From: an uncultured Elusimicrobia bacterium | Lineage (GTDB): Bacteria; Elusimicrobiota; Endomicrobiia; DTEH01 | NCBI GenBank assembly: GCA_964561135.1 | Contig: CAZLOB010000022.1 | Location: forward strand, 5,718-69,717 | Reading direction: 5' to 3' | Length of the DNA: 64,000 nucleotides | Part shown: positions 2,065 through 51,606 of the stretch, in pieces | Numbering within the stretch: position 1 is the stretch's first letter | Layout of the letters: every line of letters starts with the position of its first letter | Made by a program: the position numbers and the translations under genes | Notes under the pieces: generated by a model | Told to the model about the DNA's origin: nothing | The model's input: only the letters and a program-made list of their open reading frames with translations | Databases searched by the model: none

Positions 2065-3078
2065 ATGTTATTTATACTTTTTATTGTTTTAAACCTTTCC
2101 TTTAATTTATACTCAGAGGTAAGGATAGTTGCAGTAGGTGATTTCATGCCTGGAAGTACTTATCCAAAACCGATACTTCTCTCTAAAGAAAAACTTGATG
2201 AAATTTGTGAAAATATAAAACAATATATACCTCAAGCTGATATAAAAATATTTAACTTAGAAGGGGTTTTAACAACAAGTACACAACCTTTTAAAAGAAT
2301 TAAAAAAACTTATTATTTTGCAATACCACCTGAATATGTGACAATAATAAAAAAATTAGGGTTTAACACAGCAAGTCTGGTTAACAACCATGTGTTAGAT
2401 TTTGGTTTAAGCGGATATAAAGAAACAGTAAAAATTTTAGAAGAAAATCAAATAAAGTATGCTGGTGAAAAAGGTAAGTTTGCTGAGTTTATTGTTAAGG
2501 AAAAAAAAGTTTGTGTTGTATCGTTCGGTTTTACTTATCCTAAAAAATTTTATTCAATTTTAAACATTAACGAAGCAAAAAAAGTTGTCACTGAATTAAA
2601 AGAAAAATATGATATAGTTATTGTTTCTTTTCATGGTGGCAAAGAAAGTTTTGAAAGGACTTTTGATGAAATGGAAGAATTTTTATCAGAAAAAAGGGGT
2701 AACTTAATAGCGTTTAGTCATGCTGTTATTGACGCAGGTGCTGACTTAGTAATAGGTCATGGTCCACATGTTCCACGTGCATTAGAGTTGTATAAGAAAA
2801 AACTTATTGTTTATAGCCTGGGAAACTTTTTTACATATGCAAGGTTTAATTTAGAAGGTATACGTTCATATGCACCAATGATATACGTTCTTCTTGATGA
2901 CGAGGGAAATTTTAAAGAAGGTAAAATAATACCGTTTATACAAACTGGTTTAGGTATACCTGTTTTTGATAACGAAAAAAAAGTTGTTAAATTAATAAAA
3001 AAATTAACTGAGCTTGACTTCCCACAAACAACATTGCATATTGACGAGGAAGGGAATCTGCAAATTAAACAATATTAA
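2065..3078 (+). CDS. CapA/PGA_cap family protein (poly-gamma-glutamate capsule synthesis-like metallophosphoesterase)
   Basis: An N-terminal hydrophobic signal/anchor is followed by AVGDFMPG, then HGG...SHAVID..GADLVIGHGPHV. These are the PGA_cap metallophosphatase-like motifs. Confidence 0.6.
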   Translation: MLFILFIVLNLSFNLYSEVRIVAVGDFMPGSTYPKPILLSKEKLDEICENIKQYIPQADIKIFNLEGVLTTSTQPFKRIKKTYYFAIPPEYVTIIKKLGFNTASLVNNHVLDFGLSGYKETVKILEENQIKYAGEKGKFAEFIVKEKKVCVVSFGFTYPKKFYSILNINEAKKVVTELKEKYDIVIVSFHGGKESFERTFDEMEEFLSEKRGNLIAFSHAVIDAGADLVIGHGPHVPRALELYKKKLIVYSLGNFFTYARFNLEGIRSYAPMIYVLLDDEGNFKEGKIIPFIQTGLGIPVFDNEKKVVKLIKKLTELDFPQTTLHIDEEGNLQIKQY

Positions 3079-3219
3079 ATCAATCCTTTATGTATCTAAA
3101 TCGTATATTCAAAAAAAAATGACAAGCACGTTAAGCAATTTTTAAAACTATTGATTTTTAGAATATAAATTAGTAAATGATTAAAGTGTCAAATTTTAAA
3201 CTATATTTTGTAAACAATC

Positions 3220-4342
3220 ATGACAATAAATCAAGAATTAATTGAAAAATACAAAGATCTTGTTTCTGAAATAGGAAAGATTGGAGATTTTCTTTAACAT
3301 TGCTGAAAAAGAAAAACTTTTGGCTGAGATACAACAAAAACTTGCTAATACTCAACTGTGGCAAAACACTTCTTCACAACAATATCTTGAACTAACAAAA
3401 CAATTTCAAGAAGTTCAAAAGAGTTTAGAAGTATATAACAAAATAAAATATTTACAACAAGAGTTAGAAACAATATTAGAACTACATAAAGAAACAGATG
3501 AACATTCTTTGGCAACAGAGTTTAAAAATTATCTTGCAGAACTACAGCAAATTGTAAACCAACTTAAGTTAACAATTTTTCTTAACGAACCATATGATAA
3601 ATCTAACGCTATTGTAACGCTTCATGCAGGCGCTGGTGGAACTGAAGCTTGTGACTGGGTTGAGATGTTGTTTAGGATGTACACACGTTGGGCAGATAAA
3701 AAAGGGTTTAAAGTAGAACTTGTTGATATTTCAAAAGGTGAGGAAGCGGGTTTTCGTAGTGTTATGTTTATTGTTAAGGGAGATTATGCATATGGTTTAC
3801 TTAAAGGTGAGGAAGGTGTACATAGGTTAGTGCGAATATCACCCTTTGATGCAAACAAAAGACGACATACATCGTTTGCAAGTTGTGATGTTGCAGCAGA
3901 AGTTGCTGAAGAAGAAATAGTTATTGACGAAAATGATTTAAAGATAGAGACATTTCGTGCTTCAGGCCATGGTGGACAACATCTACAAAAAACTGAGTCT
4001 GCAGTAAGGATTACTCATATACCCACAGGGATTGTGGTACAATGTCAGACAGAACGGTCTCAGTTAAAAAATAAACTAACTGCTTTAAAAATTTTAAAAT
4101 CAAGATTGTACAAACTTAAAAAAGAACAAGAATTAAAAGAAAAGCAAAAAGAACGTATACAGAAAGGTGAGATTGGCTGGGGTAGGCAAAAACGTTCTTA
4201 CATTTTTATGCCGTATCAACTTGTAAAAGATCATATTACAGGAGTTGAAGTAGGAGATATTAATTCTGTAATGGACGGAGAAATAGATGTTTTTATTCAA
4301 GCATATCTTGAATATATTGCAAAAAAGAATAAAAAAATATGA
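3220..4342 (+). CDS. prfB: Peptide chain release factor 2, made by a programmed +1 ribosomal frameshift (ORF0 3220-3294, then +1 frame 3296-4342)
   Basis: ORF0 encodes an RF2-like N-terminus (MTINQELIEKYKDLVSEIGKIGDFL, 25 codons) and ends at CTT TAA C. The +1 frame continues as an RF2 body with SPF-region and GGQ motifs ([11 protein letters not shown]). The layout matches canonical prfB: codon 25 is CUU and codon 26 is a stop. Confidence 0.85.
3283..3298 (+). promoter_or_regulatory. prfB +1 frameshift cassette: internal SD-like GGAG, spacer, slippery CUU, then in-frame stop UAA followed by C
   Basis: The sequence is ggagatttt CTT TAA C. The zero-frame stop at 3295-3297 is UAA instead of the canonical UGA. 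The downstream C makes a weak stop context, as in E. coli. Confidence 0.7.
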
Positions 4343-5409
4343 ATCAAATAGAGAATTTAAGGAAAAAAATAAACCGGATCGATCTAAAAATACTGAATTT
4401 ATTGAACCGTCGTGCTGAGATTGCAAAACAAATTGGCCAAATCAAATCTTCTAAAGGATACCAAATTTATTCTCCAGAACGAGAAAAAGAAATTATACAA
4501 AAAATGATAAAACATAATATGGGACCATTAGATGAGGAAGATGTGAAAGAAATTTTTTCTTTGATTATTCAAATCTGCAGGTATCAACAAAAAAAATTTA
4601 AAGTTTCATATTTAGGTCCTGAAGGAACTTTTACCCAACTTGCAGCAATAAAAATTTTTGGTAATAGAAACATTTATATACCTAAAGAAACAATAGGCGA
4701 TGTGTTTTACAGTGTTGAAAAAAACGAGGTTGAGTACGGTGTTGTTCCTGTAGAAAACACTACTGAAGGTATTGTTTCTCATACACTTGATATGTTTTTA
4801 GAATGTGATTTATACATCTGTGGCGAACTTGATATGAAAATTTCACATTGTTTGCTTTCAAAAGAAAACTCTATTAAAAAAATAAAGTATGTATATTCTA
4901 ACCCACAAGCTTTTGCTCAATGTAAAAACTTTGTTTCTACAAAGTTACATTATGCGAAACTAATTGAAGTGTCTTCTACTGCGGAAGCAGCAAAAATTGT
5001 TGCTAAAAAAAGGTATTCTGCAGCAATATCCTCAGAAGTAAGTGCCAAAATTTATAAATTAAACATTTTAGAAAGAAACATACAGGATTTAGAAGATAAC
5101 TACACAAAGTTTATTGTTATTGGTAAACACCCTATAATGAGACCATCTGGGAAAGATAAAACATCAATTTTGTTTTCTTTAAAAGACAGGGTTGGTATAC
5201 TGCATGACGCTTTAGCACCGTTTAAAAAACATGGGATTAACCTAACAAAGATAGAATCCAGACCGTCAAAACAACGTCCATGGGAATATGTTTTCTTTGT
5301 AGATTTTGTTGGCCATATAAACGATAAAAATGTTAAAAAAGCAATTGAAGAACTGGAAAATTTGTGTACAAATTATAAATTTTTAGGTTCGTATCCACAA
5401 GCGAAATAA
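4339..5409 (+). CDS. pheA: Bifunctional chorismate mutase / prephenate dehydratase (P-protein) with C-terminal ACT domain
   Basis: The N-terminal AroQ chorismate-mutase helix is IDLKILNLLNRRAEIAKQIGQIK. A prephenate dehydratase domain follows (YLGPEGTFT..., TRF-like ESRP), then a C-terminal ACT region. Its start overlaps the prfB stop (ATGA). Confidence 0.8.
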   Translation: MNQIENLRKKINRIDLKILNLLNRRAEIAKQIGQIKSSKGYQIYSPEREKEIIQKMIKHNMGPLDEEDVKEIFSLIIQICRYQQKKFKVSYLGPEGTFTQLAAIKIFGNRNIYIPKETIGDVFYSVEKNEVEYGVVPVENTTEGIVSHTLDMFLECDLYICGELDMKISHCLLSKENSIKKIKYVYSNPQAFAQCKNFVSTKLHYAKLIEVSSTAEAAKIVAKKRYSAAISSEVSAKIYKLNILERNIQDLEDNYTKFIVIGKHPIMRPSGKDKTSILFSLKDRVGILHDALAPFKKHGINLTKIESRPSKQRPWEYVFFVDFVGHINDKNVKKAIEELENLCTNYKFLGSYPQAK

Positions 5410-12206: not shown

Positions 12207-13298
12207 ATGTTAGACAAAGAAATAATCAAAAATTGTGAACACTTAATTATAGAAAAAAAAGAGTTAGAACAAAAACTTGCTGATCCTAATATTATTAACA
12301 ACCAACAAGAATATCAAAATATTGTTGCTGAATACAACCGTGTCAACGAAATTGTTTCTGTATACTTACAAATTAAAGATTTGGAAAACAAAGTTGACGA
12401 ACTTAAAAAAGAATTAAAAAGTTCTACTGATACAGAATATAGTATGTTAGTAGAAGAAGAGATTGAAAAGTTGAGTAAAGAAACTGCTGAGTTAGAACAA
12501 AAATTGCTAGACCTTTTTCTACCCGAAGATCCTAACGAGAAAAAGAATGTGATACTTGAGATACGTGCAGGTACAGGCGGTGAAGAAGCAGCGTTGTTTG
12601 CATACGATTTGTTTAGGATGTACAGCAAATATTGTGCTAAAAAAGGCTGGAAAATAGAAGTTTTAGATATCAACCAGACGGAACTTAAAGGAATAAAGGA
12701 AGTTATATGTTATATTTCTGGTAAAGATGTATACAAATATTTACAGTTTGAAAGTGGAGTACATAGGGTTCAACGTGTACCTATAACAGAATCTTCCGGT
12801 AGAATCCACACTTCAGCTGCAACTGTTGCTGTTTTACCAGAAGCAGAAGATGTTGAGATAGAAATAAAACCTGACGATATTGAGATAGAAACATTTCGTG
12901 CTTCAGGTCATGGAGGACAACACTTACAAAAAACTGAATCTGCAGTAAGGATACGGCATAAACCAACAGGTATTGTTGTTCAATGTCAAGACGAACGTTC
13001 ACAATTAAAGAACCGTGAACGCGCATTAAAAATTTTAAAAGCAAGATTGTACGACTTAAAACTACAACAGCAACAACAAGAAATTGCTAAGTTAAGAAAA
13101 TCACAGGTAAAATCTGGAGACAGGTCTGAAAAAATACGGACATACAATTTTCCACAAAACCGTGTAACTGATCATAGAATAAATTTAACTTTATATAATT
13201 TACAAGAAGTTCTAGATGGTGAGTTAGACGAGATTATTGACAATTTAATCAAAGTTAGGCTGAAAGAAAAAATTGCTGAGTTTCTTTATAACAAATGA
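12207..13298 (+). CDS. prfA: Peptide chain release factor 1
   Basis: The PxT-region and GGQ motif ([11 protein letters not shown]) are present with RF1-class overall similarity, and prmC follows. Confidence 0.9.
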
Positions 13299-14140
13299 AC
13301 ACGATAAACGAAATTTATATTGATATATACAACAAACTGAAAAACTTTACTTCAGCACGTATTGAAACAGAACTGATTATATCAAAAACTTTAAATTTAG
13401 ATAAAATAAAAATTTATGTTTATCCTGAAAAAAAACTTAACGAAAAAGAACTTAAGTTGATTTATAAAAATCTTAACTTGAGGCTAAATCGTATACCACT
13501 TGAATATATATTTTGTGAAAAAGAATTTTTTGGTTTTAATTTTTATGTTGACAAAAACGTTTTGATACCACGGCAAGAAACAGAGTTTTTAGTAGAGGAA
13601 GCAATTAAGTTAATATCTTGTTACAAACTTAAAAAAATAGCTGACATTGGTACTGGTTGTGGTAATATCGCGATAAGTATCATTAAAAACATACAAACAA
13701 AAATCAAAATATATGCTACAGATATTTCAAAAGAAGCGATAAATGTCGCAAAAAAGAATGCAACGATGCATAATGTTTTAAACAAAATAGAGTTTGTTTT
13801 AACTGATAAACTAAAATATTTTTTAGATAATTCTATTATATTAGACATGATTGTTTCAAACCCGCCATATGTTACTGAAGAAGAGTATAAAAATCTTCAG
13901 CCAGAGATATATTATGAACCAAAAATTGCGTTAGTTTCGCCGACAGGGTTAGAATTTTATTCATATTTTGCCAAACATAGTAAAAAAGTTTTAAAAGAAA
14001 ATGGATTTTTAGTACTTGAATTGAACCCGAATTTATACAAAGAAATTTGCAACATATTTAAAGAAAATAAATTTTGTATTTATAAAACTATTTATGATTA
14101 CCAAAATCTACCACGTGTTATTGTAGTAAAAAACAATTAG
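13295..14140 (+). CDS. prmC: Release factor glutamine N5-methyltransferase PrmC (HemK)
   Basis: The SAM-binding motif [12 protein letters not shown] and the NPPY motif (SNPPYV) are present. It is translationally coupled to prfA (ATGA overlap). Confidence 0.8.
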
Positions 14141-49838: not shown

Positions 49839-50575
49839 AAAAAACTAATCTTGTAGCAGTATTTACCTGCGAAAATATCAACAAACAATTATCTTTGCTT
49901 AAAAAATACAAAAATTTTATTGACAGCGTAGAAATAAGGGTTGACTCCTTTTATAAGAATAATAAAATCAAAGAAATACCAAATATTATAAAAAATATAA
50001 AAGATACTATACCAAAGATAAAAATTATTATAACATTCAGAAAACTTGAAGAAGGTGGTTGTGTAAAAGTTTATGAAAAAACAAGGCAATTTGTAATAAC
50101 AGAACTTTTAAAAAGTTCTCATCAATACATAAATTTCGTAGATATTGAATTTTTCTCTAAAATAAAAAATAAAATAATTAATCTAGCAAAAAAATATAAA
50201 AAAATTGTAATTTTATCGTTTCATAAATTAGACAAAAATTTTAAGCTAAATGAAGTAACAAAAATAATTAAAAAAATGCAAAAATTTGTTAATAGCAATA
50301 AAAAACACTGCATCATTAAAATAGTTGTTTATTGTGATTCATTATACAAATACATCGAGATCTTAAAAAGTGCTCACATTAAGCCAACAACGAAAACAAA
50401 AGTTTTTAAAAACATAAGCATTTTTTCTGTTGGCAAAACTTCGATACTTTCAAGGCTAATTTGTTTCGTTTTGGATATGCCGATTGTTTACGCTGCACTA
50501 TCAAAAGCAGTAATTAAAACACAGCCTACTATAAAACAGATTGTCAAAATAAAAAGACTTCTTGCCAACAACTAA
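49835..50575 (+). CDS. aroD: 3-dehydroquinate dehydratase, type I
   Basis: AroD motifs: IEIRVD (the Schiff-base barrel start), ITFRKLEEGG, SFH, and a C-terminal GK-S-SR pattern. The start is chosen at MKKTNLVAV and overlaps the queH stop (ATGA). Confidence 0.6.
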   Translation: MKKTNLVAVFTCENINKQLSLLKKYKNFIDSVEIRVDSFYKNNKIKEIPNIIKNIKDTIPKIKIIITFRKLEEGGCVKVYEKTRQFVITELLKSSHQYINFVDIEFFSKIKNKIINLAKKYKKIVILSFHKLDKNFKLNEVTKIIKKMQKFVNSNKKHCIIKIVVYCDSLYKYIEILKSAHIKPTTKTKVFKNISIFSVGKTSILSRLICFVLDMPIVYAALSKAVIKTQPTIKQIVKIKRLLANN

Positions 50576-50828
50576 ATTCTAAAAACTTAAACTTAAAATG
50601 ACGATTTAAAACTTAATCCGGCTATTGAATTTAACCAAATTTTAATCTAATTTTAAGTTCCTATAAGATATATTATGTTAATTTATATTTTTTGAATGAT
50701 ACTTTAAAATAAAGACGAAAAATTACGAAAAAACGAAATCATAAAACAAAAATTAATGTAATAGTTTAAATTCGAATAAAAATAAAAATTAAAGTAATAC
50801 TTGAAAATAGAAATTGCAAAAATTGTAA

Positions 50829-50861
50829 AACTTGCAGCTTCAAAAAAGAAACTTGCAAGTT
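50829..50861 (-). terminator. Possible weak hairpin at the pgeF stop codon, which may act as a bidirectional terminator
   Basis: An 8-bp stem (AACTTGCA paired with TGCAAGTT) with a 17-nt loop sits in the convergent aroD/pgeF gap. It includes the perfect 12-bp palindrome AACTTGCAAGTT (50850-50861) and is followed by T-rich sequence on the minus-strand transcript. It is AT-rich and weak. Confidence 0.2.
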
Positions 50862-51606
50862 AAACTTTTGTAATAATGGAAAGTAAGCGGTAAGAAGTGG
50901 CATTTTTTCTAAAAGAAAAGAAAAGGTCATCATGAAAAGTACAAAAACCAGTGTTAATAATCTGCTGTTTTGAAAAACCGAAATTTAAAAGTTTTTTAAA
51001 AAGTATATCAAATAAAGAAAATTTCTCCCCATCTACATAATAACAATTCCCGCAAATATGAGGGCCTGCTATAAATAGAGTATCTTTTAAAGAAAAAGAA
51101 AGAGTATTTAGTTTCTCAAAAAGACATTCTATTATACCTTTTTGCAATCCTATTCTTCCAATATGAACAAGTCCAAACCAGCTGTTTTCTATATCCACAA
51201 CAAATAAAGGGATACAATCGGCTGTAAAAATAGCAATAATTTCTTTATTATTTTTAGAAATTATGCCATCTGTATGTAGAATTATTTTATAGTCAACCAC
51301 AAAATTTTTGAATTGTAGTTTACCAAAATAACCTTCAAAATCTGACTGATTGGTTTCTATTATTTTATTATCGTGTATTTGCTCGCACATTACCACAACT
51401 TTGTTTAAAAATATACTTGGATATTTAGTAGCAAAAGAGTACAAAGAAAGGGTTTTTTCTTTAGAAATAAAAGGGATAAAAGGAATAGACAAGTTAGCTT
51501 CTTTGGTTTCAGATATTAAATTCTTTGTTGTAGTAAGTAACAAAAAATCTTTTATTTTAAAAGATATATAATCACAATTTTCTTCATAGCTAATCATTTT
51601 CCACAA
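50860..51606 (-). CDS. pgeF: Purine nucleoside phosphorylase/laccase-domain protein PgeF (YfiH/YlmD, DUF152)
   Basis: The motifs are TADCIP and GPHICGNCY(YV). It sits downstream of ftsZ as ylmD does in Bacillus. Confidence 0.75.
   Translation of the reverse strand: MWKMISYEENCDYISFKIKDFLLLTTTKNLISETKEANLSIPFIPFISKEKTLSLYSFATKYPSIFLNKVVVMCEQIHDNKIIETNQSDFEGYFGKLQFKNFVVDYKIILHTDGIISKNNKEIIAIFTADCIPLFVVDIENSWFGLVHIGRIGLQKGIIECLFEKLNTLSFSLKDTLFIAGPHICGNCYYVDGEKFSLFDILFKKLLNFGFSKQQIINTGFCTFHDDLFFSFRKNATSYRLLSIITKV

Follow-up and report, generated by a model that had tools for sequence, protein, structure and literature searches.

The window, by which we mean the whole 64,000-nucleotide (64-kb) stretch of DNA analysed here, carries the gene for release factor 2 (RF2), prfB, split over two overlapping reading frames, together with prfA, the gene for release factor 1 (RF1). 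The features on which the analysis rests are as follows.

3220..3297, + strand: prfB ORF0, 25 sense codons (MTINQELIEKYKDLVSEIGKIGDFL) and an in-frame TAA; it can be aligned to the N-terminal end of RF2 in relatives, and the match to the prfB HMM extends across the junction.
3283..3286, + strand: internal Shine-Dalgarno (SD)-like core GGAG, 5 nt 5' of CTT; its GAG and the following TTTCTTT are invariant in 10 aligned Endomicrobiia sequences.
3289..3291, + strand: TTT codon, in the E-site while CTT is in the P-site; invariant in the same alignment.
3292..3298, + strand: shift heptamer CTT TAA C, with the slippery Leu codon CTT (3292-3294), the UAA stop (3295-3297) and the +4 C (3298).
3296..4342, + strand: prfB ORF1 in the +1 frame, 348 codons; the first is AAC (Asn26) and the last TGA (4340-4342), overlapping the pheA ATG.
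3839..3847, + strand: SPF tripeptide, the stop-codon discriminator of RF2, residues 207-209; the 22 residues around it do not differ between UAA and UGA lineages.
3971..3979, + strand: GGQ motif, residues 251-253, embedded in RASGHGGQ; the counterpart of E. coli residue 246 is Ala.
12207..13298, + strand: prfA (RF1), the other factor that would be able to read the shift-site UAA; 509.8 bits against a cut-off of 423; PIT at residues 192-194 and GGQ at residue 236.
13295..14140, + strand: prmC, release-factor glutamine methyltransferase, directly after prfA.

ORF0 begins at ATG 3220 and overlaps ORF1, which runs from 3296, at the shift site, and the HMM alignment continues without a break from one to the other. 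The joined RF2 has 373 residues and scores 464.8 bits on the NCBIfam model TIGR00020 prfB (cut-off 370), with the match covering residues 12 to 363 and thus passing through the frameshift junction, while RF1 models give it 273-276 bits, below their own cut-offs. An earlier note on this DNA had described a 25-codon ORF0 ending in CTT TAA C, an RF2 body continuing in the +1 frame, a GGAG a few nucleotides upstream and a prfA elsewhere in the window; all of this holds.

The stretch CTTT at 3292-3295, which is invariant in the relatives, would allow the tRNA-Leu to re-pair with UUU. The in-frame stop that follows is readable by RF2, albeit not in the strict RF2-specific form UGA, and the C at 3298 places it in a weak termination context, which fits the rarity of TAAC as a natural terminator in the window (4 of the 40 TAA-terminated genes). 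Poole, Brown and Tate, in work from 1995 in EMBO J, reportedly measured all twelve four-base stop signals in the E. coli RF2 frameshift window, with UAAC, like UGAC, said to be among the weaker signals of its own series. The spacer between GGAG and CTT is ATTTT (N5), which places the conserved GGAG core 5 nt from CUU; the hexamer at the canonical SD position, 3 nt 5' of CUU, is GGAGAT. The window has a single GGAG-N5-CTTTRAC, where 0.01 would be expected by chance, and it lies exactly at the shift-site position of the homologues. Frame 0 is closed by a second stop, TGA 3304-3306, two codons beyond the TAA, and readthrough of the UAA is therefore unable to make RF2. The fold of 3260-3360 is no better than that of shuffled sequence (z = 0.15), and a scan of 2900-4500 for promoters and terminators returned nothing above chance. 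The window contains no rRNA, and hence no 16S 3' end or anti-SD sequence, and its tRNAs are those for Gly and Pro only.

The prfB stop overlaps the pheA start in ATGA (4339-4342), and from there to 10075 runs a co-directional aromatic amino-acid cluster (pheA, a hisC-like aminotransferase, a TauE-like protein, DAHP synthase, prephenate dehydrogenase and EPSP synthase), the arrangement of which is conserved in the related lineages B, C1 and C2 introduced below. Upstream of prfB the lineages are not syntenic (L172 401-715, L174 3546-3854): a Cas Csx3-like gene lies close by in B, and in C2 there are a Y1 transposase and a large protein with an FGE-sulfatase domain. Between 11889 and 14140, rpmE (L31, with the strong SD GGAGGGAG), prfA and prmC follow one another so closely, 3 nt apart or overlapping, as to suggest a single operon with translational coupling; the order is the same in lineage B (L172). 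At about 50500-50900 the genes switch from the + to the - strand, and the GC skew turns from positive to negative there as well, a convergent layout such as would be expected near a replication terminus.

Shift sites among the relatives

We surveyed prfB with a frame-aware scan at 172 loci drawn from genome collections, metagenome collections and contig look-ups. A shift site was found at 161 of these, reading CTTTGA in 153 cases, CTTTAA in seven and TTTTGA in one; the 11 loci without the motif are in-frame, truncated or, in one case (L172), matched at prfA instead of prfB. The seven CTTTAA loci belong to three lineages: the population of the window itself (W), lineage B (L084, L089) and an unrelated Elusimicrobiota metagenome-assembled genome (MAG; L019). 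The last of these (JBNJFW010000131.1, 432-438; 41% GC) is a distant member of the same phylum as the window organism and has an independent CTTTAAC, preceded at the canonical spacing of 3 nt by a strong AGGGGG SD.

The best protein matches of the window RF2 are in MAGs annotated as Endomicrobia or Elusimicrobiota; the name of one record, GBSSSed77C, may point to a hot spring as the habitat. Four lineages with an RF2 identity of about 82-86% make up a genus-level clade, namely W, B, C1 (L001, L088, L165-169) and C2 (L086, L087, L170, L171). W and B share 82% of their DNA and 84% of their RF2 residues, with a synonymous divergence (dS) of about 1.2. C1 and C2 both read CTTTGAC, and CTTTGA is also found in all the other Endomicrobiia sampled (L002-L006 and L090-L096; 57-72% identity to W). 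This distribution indicates that UGA is the ancestral state and UAA a derived G-to-A transition. The view of the earlier note that UAA sites common in the clade would undo the observation holds in part: two of the four lineages of the genus-level clade have UAA, but none of the other sampled Endomicrobiia lineages does.

In the 10-sequence Endomicrobiia alignment, conservation across the region is highest in the block GAG-N-TTTCTTT-[G/A]-A, which varies only at N and at G/A. The GGAG of W and B is preceded by T rather than A, as it is in L004 and L090, both of which have UGA. As a consequence of the G-to-A change, the first codon after a +1 slip is AAC rather than GAC, turning Asp26 into Asn; residue 26 is Asn in W, B and L019, and Asp or Glu in the UGA lineages. 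RF2 is under strong purifying selection, with dN/dS values of 0.07-0.10 between the window and lineages B, C1 and C2.

One origin or two

In a phylogeny of RF2 only, the four lineages form an unresolved star with 33-40% support, and neighbouring genes were therefore added. In a rooted neighbour-joining tree of RF2, PheA and HisC (1097 aligned residues, four outgroups), W and B group together in 89 of 100 bootstraps and C1 and C2 in 95 of 100. A seven-gene quartet (1985 residues, ingroup only) favors the same split, W+B | C1+C2, with 47 informative amino-acid sites against 31 and 17 for the other two arrangements, and codon positions 1 and 2 do so with 66 against 39 and 21. The internal branch leading to W+B is short, and unambiguous W+B synapomorphies amount to 2 residues only. 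Thus, W and B likely, though not certainly, share their UAA by common descent from a single origin. Whether the origin was single or not, the UAA has been maintained, with the surrounding motif intact, in two lineages that are nearly saturated for synonymous change.

The two release factors

Both factors appear canonical in the regions that read the stop codon. Neither the RF2 recognition loop GVHRLVRISPFDANKRRHTSFA nor the GGQ region differs between the UAA and UGA lineages of Endomicrobiia, and there is no sign of a compensating change in RF2 codon specificity. An altered specificity of RF2 or RF1 that would make UAA specific to one factor was considered and rejected, given the identical SPF loop across UAA and UGA lineages and the canonical PIT of RF1. 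A reassignment or loss of UGA was rejected as well. Among the 63 genes of the window, 40 end in TAA, 17 (27%) in TGA and 6 (10%) in TAG; both prfB and prfA are among those ending in TGA, and lineages B, C1 and C2 have TGA-terminated genes too. Because UGA is a working stop, RF2 is still needed.

Around GGQ, RF1 and RF2 share a 19-residue stretch (RF2, window 3962-3988; prfA, residues about 229-250). E. coli has SGAGGQHVN here, and a His and an LQ of the shared stretch are common to both paralogues of the window; the same His and LQ are present in the RF2 of every Endomicrobiia relative. The likeness of the two GGQ flanks suggests that the paralogues have co-evolved in this lineage or undergone gene conversion.

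Probable frameshifting and the feedback on RF2

Based on these data, we suggest that the prfB of the window very probably has a genuine and functional programmed +1 frameshift site in which a single G-to-A transition turned UGA into UAA. Both UAA lineages retain the block GGAGAKTTTCTTTAAC at a dS above 1, and conservation of this kind fits a recoding signal and not a decaying remnant. From the conservation of the motif over this distance, together with purifying selection on both ORFs, we infer that frameshifting takes place in vivo and would respond to the RF2 concentration.

In this model, which is drawn by homology with the E. coli site, the upstream GGAG would pair with the tail of the 16S rRNA, and a ribosome reaching the UAA would have two possible outcomes. 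Termination by a release factor would leave a peptide of 25 residues. If the P-site tRNA slipped from CUU to UUU, AAC would be read next, as Asn instead of the usual Asp, and full-length RF2 would be made. Because RF2 reads UAA, the negative feedback of RF2 on its own synthesis would be retained. Because RF1 reads UAA too, RF1 would act as an additional repressor of RF2 synthesis. That RF1 as well as RF2 should be able to terminate at this UAA follows logically from the known specificities of the factors, and nothing in the canonical PIT of RF1 and SPF of RF2 contradicts it. By a simple kinetic argument of our own, the shifting fraction would be k_fs / (k_fs + k1[RF1] + k2[RF2]), and the RF1 term in this fraction would dilute the gain of the RF2 loop to a degree that depends on how active each factor is at UAA-C relative to the other.

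How much this matters depends on how termination at UAA is divided between the factors. It is quite possible, if short of probable, that the regulatory logic is effectively unchanged, with RF2 doing nearly all UAA termination and the G-to-A change being a nearly neutral product of AT mutation pressure in a genome of 30% GC. With GC contents of 26-33%, G-to-A is indeed the favored direction of mutation, and the recognition loop of RF2 has not changed along with the stop. TGA (27%) is more frequent than TAG (10%) in the window, suggesting that RF2 is at least as abundant as RF1. Moreover, RF2 proteins with Ala or Ser at position 246 are described in the literature as sharing or dominating UAA decoding; the window RF2 has Ala at the equivalent position, and by this argument from the literature a UAA site would still report on RF2. 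By contrast, neutrality under AT pressure predicts many UAA sites in AT-rich clades. Of the 161 sites, however, 153 are CTTTGA, among them those of all other sampled Endomicrobiia, at 28-34% GC, and the published figure is 98.6% TGA. In addition, prfA is intact and canonical and lies 3 nt after rpmE with its strong SD, so that RF1 is probably well expressed.

A stronger proposal is that the RF2 loop has been stably rewired in a small Endomicrobiia clade, such that RF1 and RF2 together repress RF2, total UAA-termination capacity is what is regulated, and the arrangement has been kept by selection over a dS above 1. We regard this as rather unlikely on present data; if true, it would contradict the published view that UAA is poorly tolerated at this site and never fixed in a clade.

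Internal initiation and sequencing error as alternatives

Independent initiation in the +1 frame could in principle supply RF2 with no frameshift at all, for instance from TTG 3281 (353 aa), in which case ORF0 would be a leftover or a separate leader peptide. Automatic JGI gene calls do begin the protein at this TTG (P0001, 353 aa), and ATG 3220 has no SD-like core within the 22 nt upstream of it (3198-3219). In the window at large, such a core (GGAG, GAGG or AGGA) precedes no more than 12 of 53 genes, the background being 5.8%. TTG 3281 itself overlaps with the GGAG and lacks a suitably spaced ribosome-binding site. Against internal initiation stands the homology of ORF0 to the RF2 N-terminus, with a length of 23-28 codons conserved in all relatives, as well as the invariance of GAG-N-TTTCTTT in the ten aligned Endomicrobiia and the persistence of the block around it in both UAA lineages. 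Taken together, these observations make internal initiation very improbable as the source of RF2, and programmed frameshifting remains the reading that we adopt.

The internal GGAG of prfB is conserved across the Endomicrobiia relatives although the organism uses SD sequences sparingly. In this respect it resembles the Bacteroidia as they have been described, in which SD use is low but the SD of prfB is kept.

With regard to annotation, the P0001 calls miss ORF0, the RF2 proteins of the relatives are called from assorted internal Met codons (220-365 aa), and the frameshift is unannotated in these records. The lesson is that pipelines looking for CTTTGA only will miscall the window prfB, and that the JGI calls lose its N-terminus.

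The base at the centre of the analysis is the same in at least five assemblies, the window included. CTTTAAC is identical in JGI 3300005298, 3300005278 and 3300000082 and in the ENA contig OGCH01003370; the contigs from the three JGI samples (L081, L082, L083) encode exactly the RF2 body protein P0001, and they and the ENA contig (L085) match the window at 99.8-100% identity over 1.8-4 kb and all read GGAGATTTTCTTTAAC. Each of these contigs is too short to have supplied the window. Thus, a sequencing or assembly error hiding a G at 3296, and with it a canonical CTT TGA C, of which the earlier note had warned, is extremely improbable and in practice excluded: the canonical site is one base away and the nearest UGA relatives differ within the heptamer only there, but CTTTAAC is read in contigs from different JGI and ENA samples and again in two contigs, from two samples, of lineage B at 82% nucleotide identity. 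The change is fixed in the species-level population of the window.

Comparison with known sites

The site of the window shares with the canonical E. coli site (AGGGGG-UAU-CUU-UGA-C) an ORF0 of about 25 codons, the CUU, a stop readable by RF2, the +4 C, an internal SD-like element and a +1-frame body with SPF and GGQ. It differs in its stop, UAA, which is no longer RF2-specific, and in the first +1 codon, AAC (Asn) instead of GAC (Asp). The SD also differs: AGGGGG at 3 nt in E. coli, compared with a GGAG core at 5 nt from CUU in the window. Relative to the corresponding bases of E. coli, GGAG is shifted by one nucleotide away from CUU, as it is in all Endomicrobiia relatives, the UGA lineages included.

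Natural UAA sites have been reported before. Prince, Lin and Feaga (bioRxiv 10.1101/2024.09.24.614795, 2025 version) surveyed 12,751 genomes and found the frameshift motif in 8160, of which 98.6% have CTTTGA, 1.4% CTTTAA and none TAG, with the TAA cases scattered and unfixed within clades; the Elusimicrobiota are not mentioned in that work. As related in the same preprint (10.1101/2024.09.24.614795), a single sequence among the 87 prfB genes of Baranov et al. 2002 lacked UGA, and Grome et al. (PMC11903333) name Chlorobium tepidum as the natural CUU-UAA case of Baranov et al. 2002. The site of the window has the same CTTTAAC as these natural sites (C. tepidum and the 1.4% of 8160 genomes), at the homologous position and with the other motif elements retained. 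In contrast to the scattered, unfixed TAA of Prince et al., however, the UAA described here is present in two lineages about 18% apart in DNA, probably by descent.

The same change has also been engineered. Grome et al. (Nature 2025, PMC11903333) replaced the internal TGA of prfB in E. coli by TAA (D26N, RF2.B1) "for autoregulatory maintenance", and the resulting strain had no significant growth defect. The nucleotide change and the D26N substitution are identical to those of the window. The engineered strain is without RF1, though, so that UAA is RF2-specific there, whereas the window organism keeps an intact prfA; the engineered strain is therefore uninformative with respect to RF1 cross-talk.

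Thus, the earlier observation of UAA in place of UGA is real, but the surprise that it implied is weakened by CUU UAA being a documented minority form (1.4% of 8160 genomes; one of 87 sequences), and by the published argument that an RF2 with Ala at position 246 takes on much of the decoding of UAA. The variant has been on record since 2002, was quantified in a 2025 preprint and has been engineered in E. coli, and the known picture is unchanged. What the present data add to the literature is modest, namely the persistence of UAA in two sister-like lineages of deep divergence beside lineages with UGA.

The textbook account of the prfB loop explains it by the RF2-specificity of UGA, and natural UAA sites in organisms that retain RF1 test whether this specificity is required. 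The window provides a well-supported UAA case of this kind in an uncultured phylum. The UAA lineages W and B and the UGA lineages C1 and C2, which differ by one base of the heptamer, form a natural matched pair for RF1 cross-talk in the regulation of RF2.
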